64,000 nt of DNA from Candidatus Moraniibacteriota bacterium (lineage in GTDB: Bacteria > Patescibacteriota > Minisyncoccia > Moranbacterales > UBA1568). A program made the position numbers and the translations under genes. Location: positions 65,705 to 129,704 of the forward strand of contig JBPOHW010000007.1 in NCBI GenBank assembly GCA_052035095.1, written 5' to 3'. Below the pieces are notes generated by a model, which saw only the letters and a list, made by a program, of their open reading frames with translations, was not told the origin of the DNA and ran no database searches. Below are positions 17,701-61,306 of the stretch, piece by piece. How positions within the stretch are numbered: the stretch's first letter is position 1; each line of letters opens with the position of its first letter.

Positions 17701-17706
17701 CATCTA

Positions 17707-19076: not shown

Positions 19077-19102
19077 CAAAAACCCTCGACCTTTTGTCTT
19101 TC

Positions 19103-19192: not shown

Positions 19193-19216
19193 TTTTTTTC
19201 AATTTACATTTTCTTC

Positions 19217-42379: not shown

Positions 42380-42802
42380 TCGCTCAACTTCGATGTTTCT
42401 CAAAAGCCGCCACTTGGCGGTTTTTGTTTTTTTTAAAAACACTCCTTCCTCCCCATCCTTTCAGTTTTCCTGTTTCATTTTGTTCACATCCTGTGGATAA
42501 CCCGGTATTTTCCCGCGCGAAACTCTTGTATTCACCTGCGGGAAACCCATAAGAAATTCTGCATAACTCCACCCCACCTCCCCACAGACACACACGTCAC
42601 CGAGAATCCCAAATCTATCTTTAAGCATCACCCCTCAGAAAATCCTTTCTTAAAACAGTATTCCTCTCTTTTCAACTTTTCCACCGGACTAATAGTAATA
42701 ATATTTATATTTTAAAAAATATATTCAATACCATAGAGAGAGGGTGAAGAATGAAGAACCCACCTTACGCAGTTACTGAAATAAGAGCTAAAAACCTAAC
42801 CC

Positions 42803-42947
42803 GTCATACCCGCGAAGGCGGGTATCCAGGTTCCATTCGTCTTCAGTAAATATATTACAAGATTTTGTTCGTTGGGTGATTATATTCAGCAGGTGGTGAC
42901 TACCTGCCTGCCGGTAGGCATGGGCTTCCCGCCTTCGCGAGAATGAC
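42803..42947. repeat. MITE-like element, family B, copy 1 (about 145 bp; terminal inverted repeats GTCAT(A/T)CCCGCGAAGGCGGG(T/A)ATCC; internal CTGCC..GGCAG palindrome)
   Basis: second copy at 46828-46978; read directly. Confidence 0.7.
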
Positions 42948-42982
42948 GAAAAGAAAGACGGTGTTTAAGATGAGTAAATTTC

Positions 42983-45040: not shown

Positions 45041-46333
45041 ATGATATCTTCCGGTACCATGAATAGTCAGTTCATAAATAGATCGGTAACCCCTGTTTTG
45101 GTTTGGACTGAAAAAAATCCGGATGAGGAAACTCGAGAGCAAGTGATTGCGAATCATGAGCGATTTCGAATGCTTCCTCCGGAAGCGAAGTATAAGCTCG
45201 GATTTCAGTATACTCCCGAGATTATCAAAAAAATTGGGGAAGACTTCAGTTTGGATCCGCTGAAAATGGCGAGTATTGCTCGTGCGGTACGGAATTTCTA
45301 TTTTGGCGATCTTCCAAAAGAGAAAATTGAAGGATTCTTAATGGAAGAAATGGAAATATCTTCGGAACAAGCTCAAAAAATAGCCTTGATTGTTGATCAA
45401 AAAATCATCAGTGCGCCGATTCCCAAAGATGTTTCTGAACAGACAGTAGAAATTCCCCTTCTCGACGCCCTCTCAAAGTATCAGCGGTTGTCGGAGCAGG
45501 CGGTGACGGAGGATAGAATTGTGGTGAAGGGAGAGGGTCAGCCGGTACGGGGGTCGATTCGCAATTGGCTCCGGCACTATCGGGACGTGGTGGGGATTCG
45601 GAAGCACTCCGCGATGGAACGGGGACAGTTTTTGTTCCAGGGGGAGAATACCAAGCGACTCTCCGCGCCGGATCGGGAAAAGCTCTCACTTCTCTTTCGT
45701 TCGCTCGATGAGAATATGCCGATTTCAATCGATGTCGAGCGACAGGAGGTGATATTCCCAGCATTTGAAGAAAAGTCGAACGCGAATCAAGCGCCTCTCG
45801 AGGAGAAAGTGACGCCGACGCTTGGCACCTCATTTCGTCCGATCGAAAAGTTCCCCGCCTCTTCCACTCCCATAAAGAAGGCGCTCGAGTGGAAGACAGA
45901 GAAAACAGCGATACCGCCGCTTTTTGGGAATGTTCCCGCGCCACCACGACCCGAGATTACGTCATCGAAATCGGTCGGCGTTTCTGCTCCGGTATACGCG
46001 ATTCCCCCTATTCCTGTGTCGCCGAGCGGAGATGCTCGCGCGGAGGGAGGTAAGAGTGGAGGAATGCCTGCGGCGCAAGAAGGAATGTCGGTCTCGTCGC
46101 CGTTTTCCGCGCCGGGAAATATGAGTTTTAGTTCAAGTCACGTGCTTCCCCACGAGAAGGCAGCTCTTCCTGCGGAGCCGCCGCAAGAGGGAGTATCAAG
46201 CGAAGGACATCCTCCTTCAAGGGGTCCCGAGGCAATCAGTGTCATTAAGCCTCGTGGCGATCAGTTTGGCTTTCGCGGGAAGTCGTCGGGAGATGACTTC
46301 GATGCTCCTCGTGTGGTAAACTTACGGGGTTAG
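45041..46333 (+). CDS. hypothetical protein with Pro-rich low-complexity C-terminus
   Basis: 430 aa, no recognisable motif. Confidence 0.4.
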   Translation: MISSGTMNSQFINRSVTPVLVWTEKNPDEETREQVIANHERFRMLPPEAKYKLGFQYTPEIIKKIGEDFSLDPLKMASIARAVRNFYFGDLPKEKIEGFLMEEMEISSEQAQKIALIVDQKIISAPIPKDVSEQTVEIPLLDALSKYQRLSEQAVTEDRIVVKGEGQPVRGSIRNWLRHYRDVVGIRKHSAMERGQFLFQGENTKRLSAPDREKLSLLFRSLDENMPISIDVERQEVIFPAFEEKSNANQAPLEEKVTPTLGTSFRPIEKFPASSTPIKKALEWKTEKTAIPPLFGNVPAPPRPEITSSKSVGVSAPVYAIPPIPVSPSGDARAEGGKSGGMPAAQEGMSVSSPFSAPGNMSFSSSHVLPHEKAALPAEPPQEGVSSEGHPPSRGPEAISVIKPRGDQFGFRGKSSGDDFDAPRVVNLRG

Positions 46334-46379: not shown

Positions 46380-46823
46380 GTGGTTGTTTGTTGCCAGTTG
46401 ATTGTTGTCTGTATTTTTCCTATGCTCTTCAATGTTCCGCAATTCATCGATGTGGAGGATAAGATCGCGGGACCGCTTACTGTGAAGCAGGTGTTGTGGC
46501 TTATCGGGATGGGGGCGGTGCTGTTTATCGTATGGACTTTTTTTGATACGCCAACGTTTTTCGTCCTTTCCGTTCCTATTATCCTCATTTTCGCGCTGTA
46601 TGCCTTCTATCGACCGTACAATCAGTCTATGCTTTCCTTTACCATTCACGGGGTGATGTTTTTTTTTCGACCCAAGCTCTATACATGGGATCGACCGGGA
46701 GTAATGAAACGACCGGATCCGAAACCGGTGGAAAATAAACCGATATCGGAATCCCCTCGACCGCTTTCCTTTGAAGAAATACAAGCATTGGCGAAAGTGG
46801 TGGATAGAGGTGGGAAGCGATAG
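46380..46823 (+). CDS. PrgI/VirB3-like small two-TM protein of type IV secretion systems
   Basis: 147 aa; N-terminal ..FIDVEDKIAGPLTVKQVLWLIGMGAVLFIV.. resembles PrgI family; positioned immediately upstream of VirB4. Confidence 0.5.
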   Translation: MVVCCQLIVVCIFPMLFNVPQFIDVEDKIAGPLTVKQVLWLIGMGAVLFIVWTFFDTPTFFVLSVPIILIFALYAFYRPYNQSMLSFTIHGVMFFFRPKLYTWDRPGVMKRPDPKPVENKPISESPRPLSFEEIQALAKVVDRGGKR

Positions 46824-46980: not shown

Positions 46981-47697
46981 TTGGATGAATTCTTTTTATC
47001 TATGGAAACCCTGAATCCTCAAAAATCCGTGTCGAAAGATTCGAATTCGAGCACTCAGCGCTACGTAAATGTAGAAGAGGTGCGCGATGGCGTTATCGTG
47101 CTCAAAAACGGCGCGCTTCGTTCGGTGCTTCTGGTGTCGTCGCTCAACTTCGATCTCAAGTCCGCCGAGGAACAGGACGCGATCATTTTGCAGTACCAAA
47201 ATTTTCTCAATTCGCTCGACTTTCCCGTGCAGGTGGTCATTTCTTCGCGCCGATTCGATATTCGCCCGTATATCGAGCTCCTCAAGGATAAAGAAAATCA
47301 CCAGCGAAATGAACTCCTTCGGCTTCAAATATCGGAGTATCAGAACTTTATCAAGAATCTCGCCGAGGTATCGAATATTATGTCGAAGCTTTTCTATCTC
47401 GTGATACCGTTTTCGCCCGTCGAGGACAAAGAAAAAGGCCTCTTTCACAGTTTGACGACGCTCTTTAATCCGTCGGGGGCGGTTTTGGAACGGCGGGAAT
47501 TTTTCGAAACCTACAAAAATCAGCTCTGGCAGAGGGTGGACCACGTGAGTTTCGCGCTCTCCCAAACGGGAGTGCGAGTCGCGCCGCTCAATACCGAAGA
47601 GCTCATCGAACTCCTCTATAATTCCTACAACCCTTCACTTTTTACGACACGTCTCACCAAAAACATCGAAGCGATTGATTTGGAGATAGAACGATGA
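46981..47697 (+). CDS. VirB4/TrbE N-terminal domain protein (separate ORF)
   Basis: ..VNVEEVRDGVIVLKNGALRSVLLVSSLNFDLKSAEEQDAIILQYQNFLNSLD.. matches CagE/TrbE/VirB N-terminal domain. Confidence 0.55.
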   Translation: MDEFFLSMETLNPQKSVSKDSNSSTQRYVNVEEVRDGVIVLKNGALRSVLLVSSLNFDLKSAEEQDAIILQYQNFLNSLDFPVQVVISSRRFDIRPYIELLKDKENHQRNELLRLQISEYQNFIKNLAEVSNIMSKLFYLVIPFSPVEDKEKGLFHSLTTLFNPSGAVLERREFFETYKNQLWQRVDHVSFALSQTGVRVAPLNTEELIELLYNSYNPSLFTTRLTKNIEAIDLEIER

Positions 47698-47708: not shown

Positions 47709-49571
47709 TTGTGGTTTGTGGTAGTATTCTGTGGTTGTTGTCAATACCATATGCGTGTTCCATTTCTCGCTCCTTCAATGGGCGAACAAGATGAAATTTT
47801 ACAGAGTGAAATGCTCTACCAACGAGGCGTCGCGCGCGTTCGTGATTTGATCGCGCCCTCCGCTATCAAGGTGAGTGCAAATTCACTGCAGGCGGGGGAG
47901 ACGGTTACGCGGACACATTTTATCATCGCGTATCCGCGTTATCTCAATACCAATTGGTTCGCGCCGGTCGTGAATCTCGACTTTCCTATGGATGTCGCGA
48001 TGTTTATCCACCCGGTCGATACGCGGGATATTTTGAAGAGTCTCCTCAAATCTGCGACGCGCGTCGAGTCATCCATTCAGATGGAGGCCGAGGCGGGAAA
48101 GGTGCGCAGTCCCATTCTGGAAACCGCGCTTCAGGATATCAATGAGCTTCGCGACAAACTTCAACAGGGAACGGAAAAGTTTTTTCGCTTCGGCATCTAT
48201 ATCGCGCTCTACGCCTCGTCGATCGAGGAATTGAATCGTATGAGCCGGTCAATCGAATCGCTCCTTGAAGCGCAACTTGTCTACGTGAAGCCGGCGGTGA
48301 TGCGGATGGAGCAAGCATTCACCTCGACGCGGCCGATTGCCATGGATGAGCTTGATGTCGCCAATAATCTCAACACCGCGCCGCTCTCGACAACCTTTCC
48401 CTTTGTTTCCGCCGATCTCTCGTCTAATGACGGCATCCTCTACGGGATCAATCGCCACAACAACAGCCTCATCCTCTTCGATCGCTTCAAGCTGGAGAAC
48501 GCTAATATGGTGATTTTCGCGAAATCGGGAGCGGGCAAGAGTTATTTCGTGAAGCTCGAAATTTTGCGGTCGATGATGTTTGGTACGAGCGTGATCGTGA
48601 TTGATCCGGAGAATGAATACAAGCACCTTTCAGAAACCGTGGGGGGCTCGTTCATTCATATGAGTCTCAATTCTCCGTTTCGTATCAATCCCTTCGATCT
48701 CCCGAAGAAGCGCGATGATCAAGAGGACTTTGAGGGACTTTTGCGAAGCAATATCGCCACGTTGATCGGACTGCTTCATCTGATGCTCGGGAGCGTGACG
48801 CCGGAAGAGGACTCTATCCTCGATCAGGCGCTCCGCGAAACGTATGCCGTGCGGGATATTACGGGAAGAACCGACCTTGCGACGCTCACGCCAAGCTCCT
48901 TTCCCACGATGACCGATCTCTACGAGGTGTTGCGGAATATGGAGGGGACGGAATCGCTTGCCGCGCGGCTTGAGAAGTATACGCAGGGGATTTTTTCGGG
49001 ATTTTTGAATCACGCGAGCAATATTTCGGTTCAGAACCAAATGGTGGTGTTCAATATTCGCGACCTCGAAGAAGAACTCCGTCCGATCGCTATGTATCTC
49101 ATCCTGCACCTTGTGTGGAATGAAATGCGTTCCGAAATGAAACGCCGCCTTGTTGTGGTGGATGAGGCGTGGATTATGATGCAAAACGACGATGCGGCGA
49201 GCTTTCTTTTCGGTATCGCGAAGCGCGCGCGGAAATATTACTGTGGACTTACTACGATTACGCAGGACATCAGTGATTTTATGGGATCGCGCTACGGCAA
49301 GCCCATCGTGACCAACTCTTCGCTCCAGCTCCTTTTGCGTCAATCGGTTTCCTCAATCGACGTGGTGACGGAGACGTTCTATCTCACGGATCACGAGAAA
49401 TTCCTCCTTCTGGAGAGCGCGGTCGGCGAGGGAATTTTCTTTGCCGGGTCAAAACACGTCGCGATCAAAGTGGTCGCTTCTTACAGTGAAGATCAAATCA
49501 TCACTTCAAATCCAGAACAATTGGTCGAGATCGAAGCCGCGAAAAAGGAATTTGACGAACAGGGAATGTGA
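47709..49571 (+). CDS. VirB4/TraC-like type IV secretion ATPase (ATPase domain)
   Basis: Walker A VIFAKSGAGKSY, IDPENEY, Walker B/DEAW motif LVVVDEAWIMM; in different frame from preceding N-domain ORF. Confidence 0.7.
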   Translation: MWFVVVFCGCCQYHMRVPFLAPSMGEQDEILQSEMLYQRGVARVRDLIAPSAIKVSANSLQAGETVTRTHFIIAYPRYLNTNWFAPVVNLDFPMDVAMFIHPVDTRDILKSLLKSATRVESSIQMEAEAGKVRSPILETALQDINELRDKLQQGTEKFFRFGIYIALYASSIEELNRMSRSIESLLEAQLVYVKPAVMRMEQAFTSTRPIAMDELDVANNLNTAPLSTTFPFVSADLSSNDGILYGINRHNNSLILFDRFKLENANMVIFAKSGAGKSYFVKLEILRSMMFGTSVIVIDPENEYKHLSETVGGSFIHMSLNSPFRINPFDLPKKRDDQEDFEGLLRSNIATLIGLLHLMLGSVTPEEDSILDQALRETYAVRDITGRTDLATLTPSSFPTMTDLYEVLRNMEGTESLAARLEKYTQGIFSGFLNHASNISVQNQMVVFNIRDLEEELRPIAMYLILHLVWNEMRSEMKRRLVVVDEAWIMMQNDDAASFLFGIAKRARKYYCGLTTITQDISDFMGSRYGKPIVTNSSLQLLLRQSVSSIDVVTETFYLTDHEKFLLLESAVGEGIFFAGSKHVAIKVVASYSEDQIITSNPEQLVEIEAAKKEFDEQGM

Positions 49572-49629: not shown

Positions 49630-50388
49630 ATGGCAATTGCGCAACCGATTACCAAGGAACAGGATATACGCGATCAAAAGGAGCGCGAAAAAAAAGAGCA
49701 AGCATTTTTGAAGCAAGAAAAAAATTCGATGCCGACGGCGAATGACGCGCGATATGATCGTCCGGCGGCAAACGACGCGAATTTTGACGAATCGGAAAGA
49801 GAACGACTTCAACAAGAGGCGAATATGCTTCGGAATGCCCAACGGCCGGCGAGAATCCTTCAAGAAGAAGCTGAGATTTCCGAAATGGAAGAAGGAATGG
49901 GGAGTGGAAACGGAGATATGAAAAGAAAGACGGAATCGGTGAAGCTCTCATCGTATTCGGCGCCCTTGATAGTCGCAGTTTTCAAGGATCTTATGGATTA
50001 TACAGTGGTGCTCGCGCTTCCCGGCGTTGGCACGGTCCTCAGTTTTTGCGCGAATATCTTGATACTCCTTCTCCTCTTCTTCCCGAAGCGCCGCTACAAG
50101 ATCGCTTCGAATGCGCGGATTGCCATTATCGATGCCTTTATCTTGATCGGGCTGGTTCCGCTTGAGGGATTGATGTTTCCCTTTAATCTTCTTCCCTTTA
50201 CGATTGCGGCGGTTGGTATGATCTACTCCGTCGACAAAAAATTTGTCGCCAAACGAAACGCGAAAACATTCGATAAAAAAGAAATGAAGGGGAAGCTGTC
50301 AGCCGTGCTTCGCCAGGTCTATGCGGATCGAGCGGTACCAATGAAAGACAAGAGCGGGGTTCGAGAACGAATGCGCGAAGCGTTTTGA
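49630..50388 (+). CDS. hypothetical membrane protein (charged N-terminus, 3-4 TM C-terminus)
   Basis: 252 aa; no known motif. Confidence 0.4.
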   Translation: MAIAQPITKEQDIRDQKEREKKEQAFLKQEKNSMPTANDARYDRPAANDANFDESERERLQQEANMLRNAQRPARILQEEAEISEMEEGMGSGNGDMKRKTESVKLSSYSAPLIVAVFKDLMDYTVVLALPGVGTVLSFCANILILLLLFFPKRRYKIASNARIAIIDAFILIGLVPLEGLMFPFNLLPFTIAAVGMIYSVDKKFVAKRNAKTFDKKEMKGKLSAVLRQVYADRAVPMKDKSGVRERMREAF

Positions 50389-50413
50389 TTTCCTCGCTCT
50401 TGTTTCTCAGTTA

Positions 50414-51115
50414 TTGAATACTATGTCTCAATATTCAACAACTATCCGTATGCTTCTTACCGACCGTCGATTTCTTGCGGCGCATATGGTGGCGTTCGCG
50501 GGAATGGCCTTGGTTGCGTTCTTTCCTGGAGCGGAAACTATTCCAGCAATGCTCATGCTTCTTCTTGCGGGCTACGGTCTTTTGCCGGCGATATTTATTC
50601 ACTTTGTTCTGAAGGAATCGATTGCCTCGTACGGATTTCATTGGGGGAGGGGGAGATTCTTTCCGACTCTCGGACTTTTGATTTTGATGATTACGATAGC
50701 GCTCGGCGCGGTTTGGTCGTTTCTTTCCTTTACGGACGCGGGGCTTCGATATGTTGACGGAACGAATATCGCGTTGCTTCGCGGGAGCTTTTCGGCATTT
50801 TTGATTTTTTCCGCGCTGTCGGTACCGGTTCTTTTTTTGACGGAAGCGTTCTTTCGGGGATTTCTTCTCGGGATATGGCGTCGGTATTTCGGGATATGGA
50901 GCGTGGTTTTATCGGTTGTCGCGACACTTTTTCTCTCATGGATTCGAGTGAGCGATGTATCGAGTCACGCTTTTTTCGGAGAAATGACCATCCTCGCCAT
51001 TGGTTCGATATGCGCCTCGATCATTGCTTTTTTCTCGGGATCGTACTTGCTCTCCTTTTGTTTTTTCTTTTTTTTTGATACACTGTCAACAGTGTTTGCG
51101 ATGATACTTTCATGA
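50414..51115 (+). CDS. CPBP (CAAX protease / Abi) family intramembrane metalloprotease-like protein
   Basis: multi-TM; motif LTEAFFRGFLLG (EExxxR-like) and downstream His-containing motifs. Confidence 0.45.
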   Translation: MNTMSQYSTTIRMLLTDRRFLAAHMVAFAGMALVAFFPGAETIPAMLMLLLAGYGLLPAIFIHFVLKESIASYGFHWGRGRFFPTLGLLILMITIALGAVWSFLSFTDAGLRYVDGTNIALLRGSFSAFLIFSALSVPVLFLTEAFFRGFLLGIWRRYFGIWSVVLSVVATLFLSWIRVSDVSSHAFFGEMTILAIGSICASIIAFFSGSYLLSFCFFFFFDTLSTVFAMILS

Positions 51116-54100
51116 AACAAAAAAAATACATTTTTTTCCTCAAGGCGCTTTTCCTCTCGGTATTTACGATGATGCAAATCTTCTTGCCGGGCACGATTGC
51201 GTTCGCTATCACCGTGGATAAGGTGACCGATAATGTTTTTGATGATGCTGCCAATTTTTTTGAGCGGCGATACCACCTCAATAAGGGGAGTCTTCAGGAT
51301 CAGGGGGAAAATTTTAACGTTTCGTCGCAAAAGGGGCAAGCGCCGCAGGTACTTCTCTATTTCACTCCGTCGGATCCGAAGCCGGGCGAGGAGGTGGAGG
51401 CGCGCGCGTTTCCGGAATTTTTCGGGAACTCAACCGACACACTCTACTATACGTGGTACTTGAAGCGAAAGCGGTGTTCCTTGACTGATCGCCTTACTAA
51501 TAGCGATGCTGATAAAGAGAAAAAGCTTCTCTGTGATCGCAATGATGATGACAAGATAACCGTCGAAGACTGGAAAATCGAAGCGATGCAGGCGGTTGCC
51601 GCTCGAGATTTTGACTCCACCTGCGCTTTGAACGGGAGTCTCTCTGAAGAAGAGCGCGAAGAATGCGCCGAAAATATGTATAATCCGGACGCGAAGAGTC
51701 GAATCAATGTTTCGGGATCGAAAGGAACCGATCGAGATAAGGATGGGTATATCGCGTCGGTTGGTGGGGATGGTCGATCGGGGTTTGCCGGGGATTGCTC
51801 GCCGTCGGATGGTGGCGAAGAGGAGAGTGATGATGGGAGCGCCGACCCTTTTGATCCGACATCGGAGGATACCGGTGCAGGTCGGCTCTATGCGTCGTCG
51901 ACAATAGGTGGGACGACGCGAAGCGTGACGCTTTCGTCGAGCCAAACGTTTTATGAAATTGCCACCGGATTCAGCGATACTAACTCCGAATTGTGTTATG
52001 AGATCTACGGCGTAGGAATAGGTGAATCGCATGGCGAAGGATCATGTAGCGGAAATGACAACTGGAGGGCGGCGACCGAGTACATTTCCTCCAGTGATTC
52101 TTTGATATATGGCGGCGGAACATGGACGCGTACCATTGCTCCCGTGAGTGCCGTTTTTCCTGCGGGGCACACGTATCATTTGTTTTGGCGCGATTCAAGT
52201 TCTCTCTCGGCGGCGAAGCTGACGGTTTCGAGTGACGGGTCAAGTGGGAGTGGCAATACTTGTACGGGCGAGAGCGTGTGTTATATCCACGATTTTGGAG
52301 ATGGGTACAACTATGAACTTCCGTCGTGTCAGCATCTTTTCCCGGATAACTACAAGATGGATGGAACGGGCGATATTCGGCGCGCGGGCGATATCGGCGC
52401 CGATGACTGCAGTCCCGGGGTGTGCGCCGAGTTTCCGATCGATGAGGAACGCTTCTGGCGAACCGACCCGGAAGATCCGAGTACCGCGCAGAACGGCACC
52501 AAAGACGAAGCGAATCTCGCGGGCTTGGGAGCAGATACCTTCCGCTGGGTGTACGCGCCGGAGGACAAGGTAGGCGTCGCGGTCGAGGGGGTCTCTATGT
52601 ACAATACTAAGTATGATAATTCGAGCGCCATGGTGATGTGGGCGCTTCCGAAGAATAAGTGCGATGTGACAGGGAAGTCGACGCGGACAGAAACGATAAA
52701 AGGATATAGTGTTGCTATAAAAACCGCGACGACGAACATCAATGACTGCCTCGAGGATAATCTTGTAGATCCGACCGAAGGCGGACAGGCGGAAAATGTC
52801 GATCTTTCGCTTTCATATACGCCAAACGAGCCCTCCGCCAAGTTGATTCCCTGGGGAGAAAACGCGGCGAGTGAGAAGTCACTCGCGGAAACGGGGGATA
52901 TGCTGGTGGTAAACGCCGCCTCATCCAACGCGAATCGAGATGCTTCATTTGCAAATTATCTCTGGCGCGTTCAAGCGAGTGGGAGCGGAACCTTTGATAC
53001 TCGTTTCAGCGATGAAAATGTATGGGTGGATATCACGAAGGATCTCCAAATAGCGAAAAATATCAGCGCGACGAGCGGAAACGGGGTGAATTCCCTCTCC
53101 ATTAACCTCAATCTCAATGAGAAAGAATTTTATAGCGATAAGCTCAAGGGGACCGTGCCTGGATTCGCTCGATACTTTAACGACGATGTCGCCTATTTCC
53201 GTATTTCCGCGAGCGCGACGGAGAATTTCTCCGGACAGACGAGCCGGAGCGGATCGGGGTCCGTGGTAGTCAAGGTCGTCGCCAACAAATCGATCGATGT
53301 TTACCATATAAAAACGGAAACTGATGCTTCGACGGGACTCGTGCGTGTCGCGCTCGATACGGATACCCCTCTGTGTCCCCTCTCGGGAAGCGCGGGGCGT
53401 GTCGGTACCTCTCAGCAAGTAATATGTCCGGTACTGAAAAATCAAGTGGTCGGTGTCTTCCTCTCAACTTCTTCGGGGGAGATTCGCGATTATGCCTGGA
53501 CGCTCGACGGCAAGGCACTCGCCTGCTCGAAACACGTCTCGGAGGACTGCGACGACAGCCGACAGGGAGCGACCAACTTTTTCCCCGTGTCGGGAGAAGT
53601 AGGAGATCTCTATACGCTCTCGGTGGTGGCAAATAATGCCGAGACGGGCAGATCCTTTACGGTGACACGCCGATTTCAAGTCGTGAGTCCCGACGCGGAT
53701 CTCGTCTCGGAAGACGGGGAAACCGCCTGGCCGAAGATTTTGGGGAGCTATACCAATCTTGACGGGTCGACATCGGATGATGTGAGTAAGACCTCATTTG
53801 AAGGCATTCCCGGGTCGACTGCGAAATTTTCCGCGGTCTTCCGTCCGGAAATACTGGGAACCTTTATTCTTGACGGCATCAAAGCGGGCGACGACCAAAA
53901 TGAAATGATTTGGTCAATTAACGGCAAGCCCTTCAAGTGGAACGATACCGGACTCTCGCTCGCGCTCGACGGCACTGTGGGCGATATCTATACCGTCACC
54001 CTCTCCGGCGCCTACAATCAGCCCCGCGAGCTCAGGAAAGCCCTCTATGATATCTGGAAAATATCTCCCTTTAATTCCGAAACCGTGCGGTTTTCGAAAG

Positions 54101-54294
54101 AGATACAAATTCGACTGGTAACTGCCGGAGAGAGTCCTTACGCGAAGGGAGGGGCAAATACTTTCTTTGCCTCGCTCATTTCCGCCGTGCCGCCTCTCGT
54201 GTTGTTCTCGGTTCGCCTCATCCTCTCGATGGGTCTCATTCTCCTCGTGGTCGGCGTCGCTTTTTCGGCAATGCCGGAGAGGAGACGGGAGTAG
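51112..54294 (+). CDS. giant secreted/surface protein (1060 aa) with N-terminal signal peptide and C-terminal TM anchor
   Basis: signal peptide ..FLPGTIAFAITV; Cys/Asp/Gly-rich extracellular region; C-terminal hydrophobic anchor. Confidence 0.55.
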   Translation: MKQKKYIFFLKALFLSVFTMMQIFLPGTIAFAITVDKVTDNVFDDAANFFERRYHLNKGSLQDQGENFNVSSQKGQAPQVLLYFTPSDPKPGEEVEARAFPEFFGNSTDTLYYTWYLKRKRCSLTDRLTNSDADKEKKLLCDRNDDDKITVEDWKIEAMQAVAARDFDSTCALNGSLSEEEREECAENMYNPDAKSRINVSGSKGTDRDKDGYIASVGGDGRSGFAGDCSPSDGGEEESDDGSADPFDPTSEDTGAGRLYASSTIGGTTRSVTLSSSQTFYEIATGFSDTNSELCYEIYGVGIGESHGEGSCSGNDNWRAATEYISSSDSLIYGGGTWTRTIAPVSAVFPAGHTYHLFWRDSSSLSAAKLTVSSDGSSGSGNTCTGESVCYIHDFGDGYNYELPSCQHLFPDNYKMDGTGDIRRAGDIGADDCSPGVCAEFPIDEERFWRTDPEDPSTAQNGTKDEANLAGLGADTFRWVYAPEDKVGVAVEGVSMYNTKYDNSSAMVMWALPKNKCDVTGKSTRTETIKGYSVAIKTATTNINDCLEDNLVDPTEGGQAENVDLSLSYTPNEPSAKLIPWGENAASEKSLAETGDMLVVNAASSNANRDASFANYLWRVQASGSGTFDTRFSDENVWVDITKDLQIAKNISATSGNGVNSLSINLNLNEKEFYSDKLKGTVPGFARYFNDDVAYFRISASATENFSGQTSRSGSGSVVVKVVANKSIDVYHIKTETDASTGLVRVALDTDTPLCPLSGSAGRVGTSQQVICPVLKNQVVGVFLSTSSGEIRDYAWTLDGKALACSKHVSEDCDDSRQGATNFFPVSGEVGDLYTLSVVANNAETGRSFTVTRRFQVVSPDADLVSEDGETAWPKILGSYTNLDGSTSDDVSKTSFEGIPGSTAKFSAVFRPEILGTFILDGIKAGDDQNEMIWSINGKPFKWNDTGLSLALDGTVGDIYTVTLSGAYNQPRELRKALYDIWKISPFNSETVRFSKEIQIRLVTAGESPYAKGGANTFFASLISAVPPLVLFSVRLILSMGLILLVVGVAFSAMPERRRE

Positions 54295-54322
54295 CGAGTA
54301 TTTTAGTATCTAGCAATGTCGT

Positions 54323-55606
54323 ATGAAATTTCTGAAACAGAGCGGGAAAATGTTCGTTTTTTTGTCTGTAATTGCGGTTGTCTTTGGTTTCTTTGGAAAT
54401 TTGTCTTTTGCTGCGGAACCAAACAGTGATATCACCTGCAATGCAAAGCCTCTTGACGGTGTCTGCAAGGAAGCGGGAAAGGAGTGTACGCCAGGTGCTG
54501 GATATCAAAAGTATGGGCATTGCGATAAGGTGGATGCGCCCTGCTGTGTGCCTGATGCGAATGTTCCGAAATCTGGATCAACACCCATTACGACCAAGAC
54601 TGAGTGTGAAGCCACGAAAGGATCTGATGGAAAGAATGCTTACTGTATAACGACGGTCGGTCAGAATTGCTCAACTTTTTCTTTGGATCAAATCGGAACA
54701 TGCGCCGACCTTGGTTCAGGCACGGCGTGTTGTGCTGCAAAGGGCACCCCTGTTCCTGGCGGTAGTACCTCGTCAACTCCTTCTTCTAGTGCTAGCTCGC
54801 TTCAGTATGCCCCACTTGAGAATTTGCCGGGGTTTGAGGGGGAGAGTGGGGACTTTGCGACGTATTTCAAAAATGTATATCTCTTGGCGCTCTGGATTGT
54901 GGGGATATCGGCGCTCTTTATGCTCGTCGTGGGCGGGTTCCTCTACCTCTCGAGCGCGGGGAATACGTCGACTCTGGGCTATGCCAAAAAGACGATCTAT
55001 GGAGCGCTCATCGGGCTCGTCATCGCGCTCATTTCATGGCTCCTCCTCAATACTATCAATGCCGATCTCACCAATTTGAAATTGAGTGGATTGTCGGGAG
55101 TAGCGGGACTAGGCGGTGGGTCGTCAACGACGACTACACCACCATCGGGAAATGCTGATCCGGAGGGATGCAAGAATTTGAAAAATCTCCGTTCTGACAT
55201 TGCAAATCAGTGTAATCTTGCTTCAAAAGAGTTGGTTGCCATGATGTCCTGCATGGAAGGAAAGGGTATAAAAAATACATGGACGTCAATTTCCGCCAGT
55301 AATATTGGGGGGGATCAAAATGCGGCGGCGGCGTGTTGCGGAGATTCGCGACCAGCTTCGTGTAAACATTCAAAAGTTACTTGCCATTATGGATGTACCT
55401 TTGGAACGAAGGGGCTTTCTTACGGAGTTGATATTGGAGGGTTAACGAGTGCATCGAGTGATGCTACCTTGTGCGCCGTAGCGAGTGCGGCTAAATCTTG
55501 CGGAGGGGGAAATATATGGGGGCCTCGGACACTAAGTTGCGGTGTGACATATCAGGATGGCCATAATGATCATCTTCATGTTAGTGTTTCTGGGTGCCCA
55601 CATTGA
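54323..55606 (+). CDS. Cys-rich secreted protein with central two-TM hairpin and C-terminal HxH-containing domain
   Basis: signal peptide; repeated Cys patterns; TM hairpin ..LALWIVGISALFMLVVGGFLYL..GALIGLVIALISWLLL..; C-terminal ..GHNDHLHVSVSGCPH. Confidence 0.5.
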   Translation: MKFLKQSGKMFVFLSVIAVVFGFFGNLSFAAEPNSDITCNAKPLDGVCKEAGKECTPGAGYQKYGHCDKVDAPCCVPDANVPKSGSTPITTKTECEATKGSDGKNAYCITTVGQNCSTFSLDQIGTCADLGSGTACCAAKGTPVPGGSTSSTPSSSASSLQYAPLENLPGFEGESGDFATYFKNVYLLALWIVGISALFMLVVGGFLYLSSAGNTSTLGYAKKTIYGALIGLVIALISWLLLNTINADLTNLKLSGLSGVAGLGGGSSTTTTPPSGNADPEGCKNLKNLRSDIANQCNLASKELVAMMSCMEGKGIKNTWTSISASNIGGDQNAAAACCGDSRPASCKHSKVTCHYGCTFGTKGLSYGVDIGGLTSASSDATLCAVASAAKSCGGGNIWGPRTLSCGVTYQDGHNDHLHVSVSGCPH

Positions 55607-55612
55607 TTTTTT

Positions 55613-56764
55613 ATGAAGAAGTTCTTCATCGCTACTTCCGTTCTTTTTGGAATTTTTCTCCTCTTTTTCCTCATATACAATTTTTTGTTCAAGCACAATC
55701 CGTTCGAGGGGAGGGTGCCCAATACGGCGGTGATACCAAATGAAACCGGATCGAGCAAAGAAGAGATAGAGGAAACGAAAGCAATCGCGAACGTGACGGA
55801 TGAGGAGGTGGTGGCGCCGATATTTGATGTCGAAGATCAGGCGATCCTCTATCTCGTGCCGGAAGAACAGGCGCTCAAAGAAACCTTCCTCGTGACCAAT
55901 GCGCCGCGCACGGTCGCGCGGTTCTCTTTTGTGCCGAGAAATATCATCTGGTCGCCGGATAGGAAGCGGGCGCTCGTCAAAAAGAGCGATACCGAATGGG
56001 CGCTCTTCACGCGCGAAAAAAAGGGAGAGGCGAATGAGGGTTCGCCCGTACAAATGCTGAAGCCCGGCATCGAAAGCCCCGCGTGGACGACGCTTGGGGA
56101 CAAGATTGTTTACAAATACTACGATCCGGCATTGGAAACGCGCACGCTCACCCTCGCGAATCCCGATGGGACGGATTGGGAGATGATCGGCGAGACGACA
56201 TTTCAGTTTTTGGAAATACAAGCGGTGCCGAAGAGTTCGCTCATTGCGTTTTGGAATTGGGGGAATGCTTTTGAGGAGACATCGCTCTCGGTTGTGGGGG
56301 CGATGGGGGGCGAAGTGAAAGAAATTTTTTCCAAACACTATGGCGTCGACTACGCGATCGCGCCAAATGGCAACACGATACTTTTGAGCAATACGATCGA
56401 AAAGGGTGGGACGGCGGTGACGCTTGCGACCATCAATGTAAAGGGTGGCAACTACCGTAATCTCGCCATCCCGACTCTCGCCGGAAAGACCGTCTGGGCC
56501 AAAAACAGTCGCGTGATTTACTACGCGCTCCCGGGCGCCATCCCCGCGGGGAGTATTCTGCCCAATGATTACTACCGGAAACCGATCCTGACTGCCGATA
56601 CGTTCTGGAAGATGGATATGGAGACGAATGAAAAATCTCGCCTTGTTGATCCGGCCGATATCGACCGGAGCTATGACGCCGAAAACCTCGTCCTCGATAC
56701 GGACGAGACCACGCTCTTCTTCCGCAATCGCCACGATGGGAAGATATACAAAATCAACCTCTGA
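55613..56764 (+). CDS. membrane-anchored hypothetical protein, probable beta-propeller (TolB-like) fold
   Basis: N-terminal TM; repeated ..DG..ILLSN/ IVYKYYD.. style beta-strand motifs; no catalytic motif. Confidence 0.4.
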   Translation: MKKFFIATSVLFGIFLLFFLIYNFLFKHNPFEGRVPNTAVIPNETGSSKEEIEETKAIANVTDEEVVAPIFDVEDQAILYLVPEEQALKETFLVTNAPRTVARFSFVPRNIIWSPDRKRALVKKSDTEWALFTREKKGEANEGSPVQMLKPGIESPAWTTLGDKIVYKYYDPALETRTLTLANPDGTDWEMIGETTFQFLEIQAVPKSSLIAFWNWGNAFEETSLSVVGAMGGEVKEIFSKHYGVDYAIAPNGNTILLSNTIEKGGTAVTLATINVKGGNYRNLAIPTLAGKTVWAKNSRVIYYALPGAIPAGSILPNDYYRKPILTADTFWKMDMETNEKSRLVDPADIDRSYDAENLVLDTDETTLFFRNRHDGKIYKINL

Positions 56765-58308
56765 GTTTTTCCACCCCTCCTTTGCAAGGAGGGGAGCGGG
56801 GTGGTTCCGGTTTGCGGCTCCGGCTTCAAACCCCTTTGTCTCGAGCCCGAGCCACCCCGCCTTTGCCAAGGGGATGGCGAAACCCCCATAAAAAACACGA
56901 TCCAGAAACTATACGCGAGCCCGAGTCGCCAGTAGGTGGTGTCAACGAGTCCGTGAATGAGTACTGTGAGCATTATTGCCGTGAGTGCCGAGAGAATCAA
57001 GTGATTCTCTTCTTTTTTTATTTCAAAAAAAACAGTCCGGAACCACCAAACAACCAAAAAGCCGAATGCCAAAAGCCCCATAAGACCGCCTCCGAGCCAA
57101 AACGCGAGGAAAATAGTGTGCGGCTCCGGCACCGACCACTCGAGGTAGGGCGGGAAGTATTGTTGATACGCGAGATAGCAGGATTGGAAATTTCCGGGTC
57201 CCACGCCAAAGAGAGGCGAATTGGCGATCATTGCTTTCGCTGATCGCCAAATCATCAGGCGTGAGGCGAAAGAAGAACGCGAATCGGGATCAAAAAAATG
57301 TTCAAAACGCGGAGTGTTCCACTGGGAGAGAATGATTATTCCTGAAAATACAAGAAACACGGCGGTGTATCGTAGGGGCGAATAATTATTCGCCCGTACC
57401 CCTTCTCGTACCCATCTAGTTCGCGTCATGTATTCAAACAAGAAAATCCCAATCGCAACTGCGATCCACGCGGAAATGGAATGGGTGAGGAAGAGAAGGA
57501 AGGAAAGCAAAATGAAAAATGAAAAATGAAAAATGAAAAATTGGGAACGGGAAATGCGGGAACGGAAAAAGTACCATAAGAGAATGATGGCGGGGGTGAG
57601 GTGCATGGCGAGGGCGTTGGGGGAATTGAATATTCCGGAGAGACGATGGTCATAGGTCATACCGCTTCCAAAAATCCACCCAAGAAGCGAGAGAATGGAA
57701 ATCGGGAGGAACGATACCGTGAAAATGAAAAGGAGTTTTTCGCGCGAAAAATACCGACCGGAGGCGCGAAAAAGAATCCACCCGAAGAGTATTGGAAATG
57801 CAAACCACGATTTCAGAATACCGAGCGCTCGCAGGAGTCCTTCCTGCGACATTGGACAGAGAGCATGACGTGAAAACGCGGCAACGAGTGTGGAGGAAAG
57901 AACGCCGAGAAGAAGGACAACCATCCCAATGTGTACGGGCGAATAATTATTCGCCCGTACGAAGCGCATTGATGTCAACATCATTTTTCCCCATTGTTTT
58001 CCCTTTATTCCTCCCGTTTCTTCCTTCCTTTGCGCTCCCTTTCTCCACCCTTCTATGTTTTCAATTCTTTGCGAAATCTCCCCCTTTTGTTTTCGTGTCC
58101 AAAACAGCACCGCCGCTGACGCTATCACTCCCATCTCGACCATATATATCGGCACGCCGAATAGCACCACTTTTGCGTTTTCAAAGTGGAGGAGGAAGAA
58201 TGTCGCGGCGAGGCTACCGAGCAAGTATGGTCTTATGCTCATACGAAGAAAATGCGAAGAGAACGAGGAGGAGTGGGAGGATGTGCACCGAATAGATCGG
58301 CGTTTCAA
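56671..58308 (-). CDS. O-antigen ligase/polymerase (Wzy_C)-family membrane protein carrying two in-frame palindromic insertions
   Basis: multi-TM; motif RLSGIFNSPNALAMHL; true start probably internal; contains 28-bp palindromes at 57372-57399 and 57933-57960 and a heptamer tandem repeat. Confidence 0.55.
   Translation of the reverse strand: MKRRSIRCTSSHSSSFSSHFLRMSIRPYLLGSLAATFFLLHFENAKVVLFGVPIYMVEMGVIASAAVLFWTRKQKGEISQRIENIEGWRKGAQRKEETGGIKGKQWGKMMLTSMRFVRANNYSPVHIGMVVLLLGVLSSTLVAAFSRHALCPMSQEGLLRALGILKSWFAFPILFGWILFRASGRYFSREKLLFIFTVSFLPISILSLLGWIFGSGMTYDHRLSGIFNSPNALAMHLTPAIILLWYFFRSRISRSQFFIFHFSFFILLSFLLFLTHSISAWIAVAIGIFLFEYMTRTRWVREGVRANNYSPLRYTAVFLVFSGIIILSQWNTPRFEHFFDPDSRSSFASRLMIWRSAKAMIANSPLFGVGPGNFQSCYLAYQQYFPPYLEWSVPEPHTIFLAFWLGGGLMGLLAFGFLVVWWFRTVFFEIKKEENHLILSALTAIMLTVLIHGLVDTTYWRLGLAYSFWIVFFMGVSPSPWQRRGGSGSRQRGLKPEPQTGTTPLPSLQRRGGKTQRLILYIFPSWRLRKKSVVSSVSRTRFSAS
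57372..57399. repeat. 28-bp palindrome GTA(G/C)GGGCGAATAATTATTCGCCCGTAC, copy 1 (one mismatch)
   Basis: read directly; encodes RANNYSP on both strands. Confidence 0.8.
57517..57550. repeat. tandem heptamer repeat (ATGAAAA)x4
   Basis: read directly inside the ligase-like ORF. Confidence 0.7.
57933..57960. repeat. 28-bp perfect palindrome GTACGGGCGAATAATTATTCGCCCGTAC, copy 2
   Basis: read directly. Confidence 0.85.
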
Positions 58309-59563
58309 AAAGGGAATGAGCGAGGAATATGAGGAGGGAAAAACCGACGGCGAGTTTGAGCGGTTCGAGAGATGCGAGGGCTCGGGTGATTGAGATAGTG
58401 AGAAGGAGGAAGAAAACGATGCCGTTTACGATACCGGTTTCGGCCGAGATATCAAGGAAAATATTGTGCGCGTAGCGCGGTTCGCGATACTCCGCGGAGG
58501 GCTTCACGGTATTGGAATAGTTGCCGAGTCCGACGCCGGTTACGGGGTGTTTGGCGATAATGTCGAGGGCTTCGTTCCAGATGGCGAGGCGGCCGCTCGT
58601 TGAATGGTCGGCGGGGTCGAGAGAAGAAAGGAGTCGCGAGGCGATAGGGTTCGGGATGAAGAAGAAGGCAAGGAGAAGAAGAAAACAGAAGAAGAGTGCC
58701 GGAATATATTTTTTGAAAATCAGTGAAGGGAAAATCGCGAGCGAAACCGCGAGCGCCAGAAGAAGCGCGAGGTAGCCGCCGCGTGAAAAGGTGAGTATAT
58801 CGGCGATGAAAATGAATATGGACGCTATTATGAAATAGAGTTTCGCGCGATGGGTGGAACTTTGAGTGAACGCGAGCGCCAAGGGGAGCGTCATCCCCCA
58901 GAAAAAAGAGGCGATATGCGGATCTGGGAAAAAAGCGCTCGCGCGCAGGAGATTCCCGCCGCCGACATTCGCCACCATGCTCGAATATTCCGAGACGACG
59001 CCGGAAAAGGTTGTTCCGGAGAAAATCGGGAGGATATTCTTTTGCCAGAAAAGAAGCGTCGGATCGAGTCCGATCGCGAAGGGGAGGAGAAACTGTACGA
59101 TGCCGATTCCCGCCGAAAGCGCGGAACCCGCGACAAGCCACTCCGCGAATTGTTTTCCATATCCCTTCTCTTGAAACACGGAAAACGCGACGAAGAAGAG
59201 AGGAGTGAACGAAAAGAGAAAGAGAAGTTTTCGAATTCCCCATGAGACATTCTCTGCAAAAAAAAGAGAGAACGCCGAGAAAAAAAGAAAAGAGATAAGG
59301 AGGAGTGTTTCGGCGCGCGCCGGGAGTATGAGCCTCTGTCGGAAGAGCGAGATTGTGATCCAGAAAGACCCAAGTCCGAGCGCGAAGAAGCGAGAAATAT
59401 GCAGATCGATCCCGGGCGCGGGACTCAACGCAAACTGAAACGGCAGGGTCGCGAAGAAGAGAAGAAAAAGGAAGCGCATGAAAGAATGGTGAATGGTGAA
59501 TGGTGAATGAAGAATATAGGAAAGAAAACAGGAACGATTTATTCCCCATTCTTTACTCCCCAT
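58214..59563 (-). CDS. O-antigen ligase (Wzy_C)-family membrane protein
   Basis: 449 aa, 10+ TM; ..FSRGGYLALLLALAV.. Wzy_C-like motif. Confidence 0.6.
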   Translation of the reverse strand: MGSKEWGINRSCFLSYILHSPFTIHHSFMRFLFLLFFATLPFQFALSPAPGIDLHISRFFALGLGSFWITISLFRQRLILPARAETLLLISFLFFSAFSLFFAENVSWGIRKLLFLFSFTPLFFVAFSVFQEKGYGKQFAEWLVAGSALSAGIGIVQFLLPFAIGLDPTLLFWQKNILPIFSGTTFSGVVSEYSSMVANVGGGNLLRASAFFPDPHIASFFWGMTLPLALAFTQSSTHRAKLYFIIASIFIFIADILTFSRGGYLALLLALAVSLAIFPSLIFKKYIPALFFCFLLLLAFFFIPNPIASRLLSSLDPADHSTSGRLAIWNEALDIIAKHPVTGVGLGNYSNTVKPSAEYREPRYAHNIFLDISAETGIVNGIVFFLLLTISITRALASLEPLKLAVGFSLLIFLAHSLFETPIYSVHILPLLLVLFAFSSYEHKTILAR

Positions 59564-60368
59564 TCCCCATTCTTGCTACTCCCCGTAGGAATTTGAGAAG
59601 CTTTCCCTCGTACCATGGTCGATGGAGGGAAAAATAGCTATCTTGAGACGTGCGATAGGCATTTTTTTGTTCTTTCCGTGATGCGTCTGTACTTCCACCA
59701 CCCATATGGAGAACGCAAATATCCGGAAGAAGGAGAATTTTTTTGCGGAATTTTTTCACTCGAGCGCACAGGTCCGCGTCCTCATAGTAGAGGAAGAATC
59801 GCTCGTCGAATCCGTGTACGCGAAAGAAAAGCGCGCGAGGGATGGCGAGGGCGGCGCCACTTACCCACGCGACCCTTCGAGGCGCTTCCGATTTCCAGAG
59901 TGTGGCGCTTCTTGGAAACCCGCTATGGTTTCGAATGAGGTCGAGGAGGGTGATATCGGTGCCGACGCCCCACGGCTGGGGCATTTCCGGCTCAATGAAG
60001 AGCTTGAAACCGGCGATGCCGAGCGTGGAATCTCGCTCGAATTTCTTTAAGACGGCGCTCATATCTCCCGAGAGGAAGCGCGCGTCTGGATTGAGGAGGA
60101 TAAGTATGGTTCCCTGAGCGCGCTCGGCCGCTCGATTGACGGCATATCCGAAACCGCGATTTTCAGTGAGAGTAATGAGGGTAAAAGGAAATCGCTCTTG
60201 TAATGTCCGAAGCGTCACGGTTTCTTCGGGGTCGTTGTTGACCACGAGGCACTCGTATGGCGCGGGGAAGGTGATATTTTGAAAAGATGAAAAACACGCG
60301 GGCAAGTGAATTGCGCTTCGGTAGTTGACGATGATGAAGGAGAAACGCGGTGCGTTGTTAGTATCCAT
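59553..60368 (-). CDS. glycosyltransferase family 2
   Basis: start MDTNNAPRFSFIIVNYRS.. (internal Met of ORF-track entry); GT2 N-terminal signature; overlaps next GT2 gene by 11 nt. Confidence 0.7.
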   Translation of the reverse strand: MDTNNAPRFSFIIVNYRSAIHLPACFSSFQNITFPAPYECLVVNNDPEETVTLRTLQERFPFTLITLTENRGFGYAVNRAAERAQGTILILLNPDARFLSGDMSAVLKKFERDSTLGIAGFKLFIEPEMPQPWGVGTDITLLDLIRNHSGFPRSATLWKSEAPRRVAWVSGAALAIPRALFFRVHGFDERFFLYYEDADLCARVKKFRKKILLLPDICVLHMGGGSTDASRKEQKNAYRTSQDSYFSLHRPWYEGKLLKFLRGVARMGNGE

Positions 60369-61221: not shown

Positions 61222-61306
61222 AAGAGATGTCTAAAAACGTTCAATTTTTCGGTTTTATGAAACTTGTTGGATACGCTCTAAGGTAAGGAGTGGAAAATTT
61301 TGATAT

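Follow-up and report, generated by a model that had tools for sequence, protein, structure and literature searches.

A VirB2-type pilin with a predicted LAS-like zinc-peptidase domain in a conserved type IV secretion locus of Moraniibacteriota

Introduction

Patescibacteria encode chromosomal type IV secretion systems (T4SS) near dnaA that are of the monoderm type, lack a relaxase and include TrsD, PrgI and VirB2-like pilins (Quinonero-Coronel et al. 2025, PMC12102498). Epibiotic growth requires the system in the single species in which this has been tested (Wang et al. 2023, PMC10633639), and a perspective published in 2024 describes its role as 'completely unknown' (PMC11665869). The T4SS as a whole is therefore already known (PMC12102498, PMC10633639, PMC12857230), as are the VirB2-like pilins of Patescibacteria. 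Here we describe such a locus in a stretch of 64,000 nucleotides from a Candidatus Moraniibacteriota bacterium (contig JBPOHW010000007.1, positions 65,705 to 129,704; hereafter the window), concentrating on the five genes that follow virB4. The fourth of these encodes a VirB2-type pilin to which a predicted zinc-peptidase domain is fused.

With the MPF-FATA-like systems of Patescibacteria (PMC12102498; PMC10633639) the locus shares a monoderm-type VirB4, a TrsD-like protein, PrgI/VirB3, a VirB6-like protein and a CHAP hydrolase, as well as a VirB2-like pilin near virB4, a neighbourhood free of relaxase genes and, in relatives, an adjacent dnaA. The genes downstream are left unannotated by both surveys (PMC12102498, PMC10633639), whereas here it is precisely this block that concerns us. 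In the literature we searched, neither pilin-hydrolase fusions nor the LAS-like domain family, the pair formed by a CPBP-like protein and a 1060-residue surface protein, or the three-module structure set out below have been described.

Two comparisons frame what follows. Classical VirB2 pilins measure roughly 70-120 residues when mature, and to our knowledge they carry no globular domain. The product of the fourth gene, p427, resembles the VirB2/TrbC family (PF18895; T-pilin, F-pilin) in its signal peptide, in a hydrophobic two-helix hairpin whose connecting loop is short and basic, and in being encoded in a T4SS locus; at 427 residues, however, it is extended by about 130 residues on the N-terminal side of the hairpin and by about 155 on the C-terminal side. 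Wall hydrolases encoded with a T4SS, presumably for crossing the wall, are likewise familiar from VirB1, PrgK, TraG and TcpG, and this locus has a separate LysM-CHAP enzyme of its own, but those enzymes are separate proteins whereas here a predicted hydrolase domain is covalently part of the pilin subunit itself. Filaments that display a grafted functional module are known among the modular type IV pilins (Streptococcus sanguinis PilB/PilC), which belong to a different filament system, with a class III signal peptide, and are unrelated to the VirB2-type pilins of T4SS.

Results

A pilin with two additional modules

The five genes, designated p252, p233, p1060, p427 and p383 after the lengths of their products, do lie consecutively on one strand behind virB4, as a preliminary description of the window had it, with spacers of 58, 25, -4, 28 and 6 nt from virB4 onwards (the value of -4 nt between p233 and p1060 being an ATGA overlap). 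That these open reading frames (ORFs) are real genes follows from their strong database homologues (65 for p427, at least 147 for p1060 with E down to 0, and 149 for p383, many at E <=1e-100) and from the recurrence of the gene order in dozens of further genomes.

p427 consists of a signal peptide, two 6-Cys repeats, a VirB2-type hairpin and a C-terminal domain (Table 1); it contains 24 cysteines (5.6%), and its hydrophobic segments span residues 3-21, 182-213 and 223-250. The hairpin, in which two long helices flank the short loop SSAGNTSTLGYAKKT, matches Pfam T4SS_pilin (PF18895) over residues 182-245 with E 3.3e-06 and 27.5 bits against a gathering score of 26.6. PF18895 also matches all ten pilins tested at the orthologous position (E 5.7e-09 to 2.2e-03), with five reaching the gathering score or exceeding it, and the hairpin is the most conserved part of the p427 family. 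The resemblance to VirB2 hairpins that had been remarked on by eye is thus confirmed, and the statement that the block carries no database signature is not, given that the p427 hairpin passes T4SS_pilin and that orthologues of p233 and p383 match Rce1-like and PD40 families, respectively.

An AlphaFold2 model of full-length p427 (pLDDT 66) places the helices at residues 178-210 and 215-244 and has a weak fold match to the archaeal conjugative pilin 8dfu (E 6.3). A Foldseek search of the PDB with this full-length model otherwise returned just helical-bundle noise from the hairpin, and the C-terminal domain was re-modelled alone. The N-terminal Cys-patterned domain noted earlier proves to consist of two C..C..C..C..CC repeats (C39-C75 and C95-C137) in a region whose length varies among relatives and which is mostly modelled with low confidence (pLDDT 33-48 for residues 31-90 and 64-75 for the second repeat). 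p427 therefore departs from what is expected of a small pilin in its 427 residues, its Cys-repeat region and a 155-residue C-terminal domain that folds confidently; a family-specific hairpin profile found no small plain pilin in the window.

VirB2 has its basic loop in the cytoplasm and its two termini on the outside. By analogy, the basic loop of p427 would be cytoplasmic and both termini, with their Cys-rich flanks, would lie outside the membrane, a topology that fits the Cys-rich flanking domains and the linkers rich in Ser, Thr, Gly and Pro.

The C-terminal domain carries a predicted LAS-type zinc motif

The protein ends in the tail GHNDHLHVSVSGCPH, which holds an HxH motif (H417-L-H419) that had been likened to that of LAS-type zinc peptidases. 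Pfam does not match the C-terminal domain (residues 272-427). Modelled alone with 15 homologues, it reaches a pLDDT of 94.7 and a pTM of 0.90. An exhaustive profile search places it in a domain family of 568 clusters (50% identity) at E <=1e-3, in which the domain is always C-terminal; among the 143 best representative clusters, a pilin hairpin lies upstream in 123 and the HxH motif is present in all 143. Ten residues are invariant in 60 diverse members: H349, H355, G357, S366, D370, H417, H419, C310, C347 and C393.

When a profile of these 60 members was compared with the PDB, all 22 matches were Hedgehog N-domains (E 0.036-0.25), aligned on the zinc motif, such that C-x-H-x5-H-Y-G-G...A-V-D...H-x-H-x-S-V of the family stands against H-H-S-E-E-S-L-H-Y-E-G-R-A-V-D...H-I-H-C-S-V of Sonic hedgehog (Shh). 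The LAS arrangement is defined by three zinc ligands, which in Shh are H141, D148 and H183 and lie in the segments SLHYEGRAVDI and AHIHCSV (PMC6027127). A first profile, built from 15 sequences of the C-terminal domain, had found nothing in the PDB or Pfam, and the Hedgehog match came after widening to the 60 diverse members.

Structural comparison points, if weakly, to the same superfamily. With the domain model, the top Foldseek match in the PDB is the LAS endopeptidase MepA (E 1.7-4.2, with a query TM-score, TMq, of up to 0.44 on the two long alignments). In BFVD the top matches include Peptidase M15A (probability 0.84) and M15B, a D-Ala-D-Ala carboxypeptidase, an endolysin, a cell-wall hydrolase and a protein labelled 'Sonic hedgehog'. 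One member of the domain family matches Peptidase_M15_3 (E 0.048). Some pilins (L017, L076, L078, L084) are of a more canonical type, with S-x-H-Y-x-G-x-A-x-D and H-I-H at the orthologous position. This canonical (H-x6-D) type aligns with the window type in hhalign at 85% probability (E 6e-06), and Hedgehog N-domains account, independently of the first result, for 23 of the 25 PDB matches of its profile, including the top 23 (E 0.033 and above). Taken one at a time these sequence and model statistics are weak, but all of them point towards one superfamily, that of LAS/Hedgehog-DD-peptidases, and the suspected kinship is upheld to the extent that p427 has a domain with a LAS-type zinc motif.

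Compared with known members of that superfamily (MepA, lysostaphin/LytM, M15 carboxypeptidases, phage M15 endolysins and bacterial Hedgehog-like domains; Roelink 2018, PMC6027127), the p427 domain shares the His, Asp and HxH positions and a C-terminal, predicted extracellular location. It differs in having a spacing of 14 rather than 3-6 residues between His and Asp, in being rich in cysteines, in lying outside the reach of the Pfam M15 and M23 models and in being almost exclusively fused to pilins.

Different predicted wall hydrolases occupy the same position

Among relatives, the C-terminal domain of the pilin differs at one and the same genomic position beside the propeller gene (p383 in the window). 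Instead of the LAS-like domain we find an NlpC/P60 type in L006 (a weak precomputed Pfam match) and L068b (assigned by eye from sequence), an SLT or SLT_3 lysozyme-like type in L071, L080 and L081 (sub-threshold Pfam matches, E 0.035 to 1.9e-05), GLFQIN-type sequences in L013a and L026, and a 3D domain in P0064. Precomputed Pfam annotation already pairs T4SS_pilin with NLPC_P60 on some proteins. As classified by these sequence matches, the pilin scaffold stays constant while three or four unrelated enzyme classes acting on one substrate replace each other, which identifies the proteins as predicted pilin-peptidoglycan-hydrolase fusions. The strongest argument that the LAS-like head of the window protein acts on peptidoglycan is exactly this: classes of wall hydrolase swap on the same pilin. 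In L006, an extra 233-residue gene (6707-7408) stands between the NlpC/P60-type pilin and the propeller; it is unrelated to p233 (12% identity).

Might the domain bind rather than cut? It could be a non-catalytic zinc or binding module, comparable to the Hedgehog N-domain ligand, that turns the pilin into an adhesin for host recognition. Hedgehog signalling domains are, after all, its sole sequence-level relatives among solved structures, 7-8 residues are inserted between the His and Asp ligands, the subclade of the window protein has His where Glu would stand three residues before HxH, and the many cysteines, like the variable Cys repeats at the N-terminus, would suit a binding surface. Yet in all 60 diverse members the LAS arrangement keeps its four His and its Asp, HxH is present in all 143 of the best representative clusters, bona fide hydrolase classes (NlpC/P60, SLT) replace the domain at the same position, and its fold matches are wall peptidases. 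We consequently regard a purely adhesive role as improbable.

Three modules rather than one block

For a census of this locus, 80 species-representative loci were fetched with the p1060 profile and scored by tblastn and home-built hidden Markov models. About 80 Moraniibacteriota species share the synteny of the block, and VirB4 lies no more than 5 kb upstream of p1060 in 55 of the 61 loci with enough flank. An orthologue of p252 follows directly 3' of VirB4 in 67 loci and is missing wherever VirB4 is missing, while the p233 gene is found immediately upstream of p1060 in 81/86 loci, those lacking VirB4 included. Pilin and propeller follow p1060 in only 13-17 of 59 loci; the propeller, in turn, is followed by a Wzy cluster in 19/21. 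The five genes accordingly do not form the single unit they were first taken for, as pilin and propeller track the Wzy glycan cluster rather than VirB4. Instead, there are three modules: p252 with the VirB4 core, p233 and p1060 as a fixed pair that occurs in either block, and pilin plus propeller with the glycan cluster.

Forty-nine loci have both flanks present and can be sorted by arrangement. Nine show that of the window, with VirB4, p1060 and pilin and/or propeller (type A), 35 end after p1060 and continue with housekeeping genes (type B), and five (L068, L076, L078, L080 and L084) have p233-p1060-pilin-propeller with VirB4 not within 10 kb (type C). In the type C loci examined (L068 and L076), PNPase and LspA lie upstream, joined by gyrA in L076. 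In assembly CAZOKB01 the core with p1060 (L049) and the pilin-propeller-Wzy-dnaA block (L005) are found on different contigs. VirB4 and the pilin are thus encoded together in the window and in 9 of the 49 loci flanked on both sides, whereas most relatives have the pilin elsewhere, beside a Wzy cluster. Conservation of the genes in relatives lacking the T4SS core, which the preliminary description had named as a point that would count against a role in the apparatus, is seen only locally, in the five loci of type C.

Several records show other arrangements of pilin genes. Five pilin-hairpin ORFs of 92-345 residues form an array in L046 (19908-22347), about 7 kb downstream of p1060, and in L087 a plain T4SS_pilin gene for 174 residues (9461-9985) stands directly upstream of a pilin-LAS fusion. 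L088 comes from a more distant lineage; there (8289-11080) the genes for pyruvate:ferredoxin oxidoreductase subunits are interspersed with two T4SS_pilin genes, of which one encodes a LAS-like fusion. The neighbourhood includes a DsbA-like thioredoxin gene, and VirB4 is not within 10 kb. An apparent fusion of p1060 to a LAS-like domain in L007 (an ORF of 1238 residues) was rejected because it stems from a stretch of N in that record. Around 35 of the 80 species-representative records of this Moraniibacteriota-specific locus are titled 'uncultured Bdellovibrionales bacterium', which looks like systematic mislabelling of third-party-annotation (TPA) metagenome-assembled genomes (MAGs).

These linkage statistics permit a different explanation, in which the fusion and the propeller serve the module of Wzy, glycosyltransferases and flippase in envelope biogenesis. 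The hairpin would then be a mere anchor tethering an autolysin that acts in wall growth, in division or in attaching glycan, and the adjacency to VirB4 would be incidental. The propellers that lead into a Wzy cluster fit such a role, as do the 35/49 loci where VirB4 and p1060 lack pilin and propeller nearby, the distribution of the two parts over separate contigs in one assembly (L049 versus L005) and the fusion of L088, far from any VirB4. However, the hairpin matches T4SS_pilin in every orthologue tested, a plain small pilin adjoins the fusion within the T4SS locus of L087, and p1060 ties both blocks together, because it is linked to VirB4 (55/61) and yet accompanies pilin and propeller in the five loci lacking a nearby VirB4. 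VirB2-like pilins near virB4 are, moreover, general in Patescibacteria (PMC12102498). On balance we think it rather unlikely that the fusion belongs to envelope biogenesis alone, although not as unlikely as that it is an adhesin.

A resident locus rather than mobile cargo

The preliminary description had spoken of a cargo-like block and had listed effectors among the possible roles, so that the five genes would be cargo, effectors or adhesins of a mobile conjugative element, downstream of its VirB4. Two features invite this reading, namely the co-linearity of the genes with VirB4 at short spacing and a tyrosine recombinase gene (40018-40974) just upstream of the locus. Relatives, however, have this recombinase (48-73% identity) in the corresponding position; it was therefore rejected as a marker of a mobile element, and it looks like a resident Xer-type gene. 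Judging by the synteny of relatives, the five genes have a conserved order in a chromosomal locus near dnaA, the same order recurring in many species beside R3H, YidC, RnpA and DnaA, and their divergence equals that of neighbouring genes. GC content is 0.49-0.54 across the block, like its surroundings, with no compositional break. Neither a relaxase nor a coupling protein (T4CP) was found among the window ORFs scanned, and most such systems are reported to be without relaxases (PMC12102498). Variable presence, flanking mobility genes and a break in composition, by which the cargo of a mobile element is recognised, are thus not seen. With conserved synteny, a recombinase that stays in place and even GC content, the term 'cargo' finds no support, and we consider a mobile origin of the block very improbable indeed.

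Proteins encoded alongside the pilin

We retain, as the best interpretation, the earlier suggestion that these proteins are structural surface components of the apparatus; p1060, p233, p252 and p383 may be its scaffold or adhesion partners.

p233 is a six-TM (transmembrane) protein of CPBP/Rce1-like type: PF02517 matches 22/45 orthologues (best E 1.9e-07), and does not match the window protein itself at E <=1. Of the CPBP motifs (EExxxR, FxxxH and HxxxN/D were sought), the orthologues keep only x-E144-x-F-F-R148-G149, with the first Glu replaced by Tyr or Thr, and no column of the alignment has eight or more His among the 45 orthologues; a search of the PDB gave no match. Since the first Glu of motif 1 and the catalytic histidines are missing, protease activity is doubtful and p233 is probably a pseudo-protease. 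The family to which it had been assigned stands, then, while its designation as a protease does not. Catalytically inactive members are known among the CPBP/Rce1-like (Abi) proteases, for example SpdC/LyrA of S. aureus. With the family at large, p233 orthologues share the match to PF02517 and the E..FRG of motif 1; what sets them apart is the fixed pairing with a C-terminally anchored surface protein of about 1000 residues that is specific to this lineage. This pairing suggests that p233 may handle or anchor p1060.

p1060 has an N-terminal signal segment (residues 6-26) and a conserved C-terminal double hydrophobic segment (1016-1056) that ends in a basic cluster, in line with the signal peptide and C-terminal anchor described before. 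The enrichment in Asp and Gly (8.1% and 8.8%; Ser makes up 10.7%) was likewise seen correctly, but the protein cannot be called rich in Cys (18 residues, 1.7%). Conservation extends over the C-terminal ~62%. All taxon-bearing names among its homologues (at least 147) are Moranbacteria or Moraniibacteriota and none of the homologues has a Pfam domain; a Pfam scan of 31 homologues produced only faint hints of PKD/CARDB (Ig-like) and EF-hand, and the p1060 profile found no match in the PDB. By these sequence comparisons p1060 is an orphan family confined to this lineage.

In p252, a small membrane protein, the N-terminal half is charged and there are three hydrophobic segments; family and PDB searches with it gave no informative match. 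p383 constantly accompanies the pilin fusion and is anchored by one segment at its N-terminus (residues 1-28). Pfam does not match the window protein itself; PD40 is found in 14/25 homologues (best E 6.8e-06), other homologues match further propeller families, and several of the 149 are named 'Tol biopolymer transport system component' by JGI, which supports the description of p383 as a membrane-anchored TolB-like protein.

The locus and its surroundings

VirB4, TrsD, PrgI/VirB3, a VirB6-like protein and a wall hydrolase are all encoded here (Table 1), the combination by which MPF-FATA-like T4SS of Patescibacteria are recognised, and the gene order of the locus is common to relatives at 39-76% identity. 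The LysM-CHAP gene at its head keeps its position in relatives and is followed on its 3' side by a strong terminator-like hairpin (42401-42426). The VirB6/TrbL-like gene precedes VirB4 in most loci; for the conserved 430-residue protein next to it, Pfam and NCBIfam scans gave no family match. VirB4 is split, the gene for the 238-residue N-domain ending 11 nt 5' of that for the 620-residue ATPase. The same split is present in all relatives examined and is a known trait of Patescibacteria, for which a free TrsD/TraC-like protein corresponding to the VirB4 N-domain has been described (PMC12102498).

Downstream, the convergent glycan genes (Wzy, GT2, flippase) are accompanied by a Jag/R3H gene, also on the minus strand, and have equivalents in L001, L003, L004, L005 and L087. 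Beyond the glycan cluster of relatives come YidC and then DnaA; RnpA was seen in two of them (L005 and L087) and rpmH in one (L005). From this synteny dnaA would be expected just past the end of the window. The first Wzy_C ORF (56671-58308, minus strand, 545 residues) overlaps the 3' end of p383 by 94 nt; its low-complexity C-terminal tail is absent from the 470-residue orthologue of L001 and may reflect a lost stop codon. A Wzy_C-like ORF also contains two copies (57372-57399 and 57933-57960, 561 nt apart) of a 28-nt near-perfect palindrome, GTACGGGCGAATAATTATTCGCCCGTAC, which translates as ...VRANNYSP... in ORFs of both strands and looks like a small repeat element tolerated in coding sequence.

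GC skew is negative across the whole left part of the window and positive from about 43.0 kb. The flip falls within a gene-free spacer of 600 bp (42380-43000, GC 0.41) between the LysM-CHAP and VirB6-like genes, where there is also one copy of a perfect DnaA box, TTATCCACA (42492-42500); by synteny dnaA lies about 22 kb away. Skew flip and DnaA box could mark a replication origin or be an artefact of strand bias. Further left, a low-GC stretch (0.36) at 10001-12000 precedes nine tRNA genes (12589-19301).

Table 1. Features of the T4SS locus and of the pilin fusion p427, with positions counted from the first nucleotide of the window.
Feature	Position	Strand	Basis
LysM x2 + CHAP peptidoglycan hydrolase (VirB1-like), head of locus	41270-42379	+	Pfam LysM 8.8e-20, CHAP 2.1e-19
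VirB6/TrbL-like polytopic channel protein (674 aa)	42983-45007	+	L001 orthologue carries PF19590 TrbL_3
Conserved 430-aa protein	45041-46333	+	position kept in relatives
PrgI (VirB3-like)	46380-46823	+	Pfam PrgI 4.2e-08, 34.1 bits against cut-off 27
TrsD/TraC-like free-standing homologue of VirB4 N-terminal domain (238 aa)	46981-47697	+	NCBIfam TrsD 7.9e-07, VirB4 N-terminal matches; PF26593 in relatives
VirB4 ATPase, CD1110 type (620 aa)	47709-49571	+	NCBIfam conju_CD1110 5.1e-104, 349 bits against cut-off 325; Pfam P-loop_TraG 3e-28
p252 (252 aa)	49630-50388	+	ORF directly 3' of VirB4
p233 (233 aa, TTG start)	50414-51115	+	ORF
p1060 (1060 aa)	51112-54294	+	ORF
p427 (427 aa)	54323-55606	+	ORF; modular VirB2-type pilin
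p427 residues 39-137, two 6-Cys repeats (C..C..C..C..CC)	54437-54733	+	Cys positions, alignment
p427 residues 178-250, pilin hairpin	54854-55072	+	Pfam T4SS_pilin
p427 residues 272-427, LAS-like (Hedgehog/DD-peptidase-type) domain	55136-55603	+	model, invariant residues, profile and fold matches
p383 (383 aa)	55613-56764	+	ORF
Convergent glycan cluster: two Wzy_C proteins, two GT2 glycosyltransferases, flippase	56671-62761	-	Wzy_C 7.5e-18 and 1.1e-23

Discussion

The best explanation of the block, and one we consider probable without being close to certain, is that it forms the distal half of a vertically inherited chromosomal T4SS locus of the monoderm (MPF-FATA-like) type, composed of conserved envelope components, in which a VirB2-type pilin bears a predicted wall-cutting zinc-peptidase head and is accompanied by envelope partners. 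A number of observations weigh against it. All links of the domain to solved LAS enzymes are weak (HMMER E ~0.04, Foldseek E 0.08-4, TM-scores 0.36-0.49), and the Pfam M15 and M23 models gave no match to the p427 of the window. In its type, the ligands are spaced as H355-x14-D370 instead of the defining H-x(3-6)-D, with an insertion of seven residues relative to Shh, and His rather than Glu is found three residues before HxH. A pilus made only of 427-residue subunits, each with two globular modules, may be sterically crowded. Finally, VirB4, p1060 and pilin/propeller are found together in just 9/49 loci, 19/21 propellers adjoin a Wzy cluster and are thus only loosely linked to VirB4, and the fusion of L088 sits among oxidoreductase genes.

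If p427 is nonetheless the pilin of this apparatus, how might it work? The protein would be exported by Sec and its signal peptide cleaved, leaving the hairpin in the membrane and the short basic loop in the cytoplasm, so that the double 6-Cys repeat and the LAS/Hedgehog-DD-peptidase-type zinc domain would face outward, each on a Ser/Thr/Gly/Pro linker. The machine of VirB4, TrsD, PrgI and VirB6 would extract the hairpin from the membrane into a short pilus or conduit. Peptidase heads on the exterior of that pilus could then cut the peptide cross-links of peptidoglycan, and such cutting would open the producer's own wall for the apparatus, the wall of an attached host cell, or both.

One may go further and imagine enzymatically armed pili, in which a VirB2-type subunit carries an interchangeable hydrolase head (LAS-like, NlpC/P60 or lytic-transglycosylase-like) and the growing fibre cuts through the wall of the host bacterium. 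This reading is tentative, and we would call it possible rather than likely. The LAS-like head would represent an undescribed domain family, with at least 568 clusters (50% identity), that is met with almost nowhere but in pilin fusions.

What would the finding mean for these organisms? VirB2-like pilins have already been seen as an oddity of these monoderm systems, and many of those considered here appear to be fused to swappable wall-hydrolase domains, which points to peptidoglycan, be it the producer's or the host's, as a target of the fibre. The analysis also delineates a candidate LAS-like domain family that has so far gone without annotation, and adds two conserved lineage-specific parts that T4SS surveys had left grey, the pair of pseudo-CPBP and 1060-residue protein and p252. 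A pilin subunit that bears an enzyme would be unusual for VirB2-type pili and would offer a testable handle on why the T4SS of the Candidate Phyla Radiation (CPR) is essential. Armed pili, if they exist, would explain in concrete terms how the T4SS that is essential to ultra-small epibionts works, and may hint at how host-dependent Patescibacteria breach cell walls.

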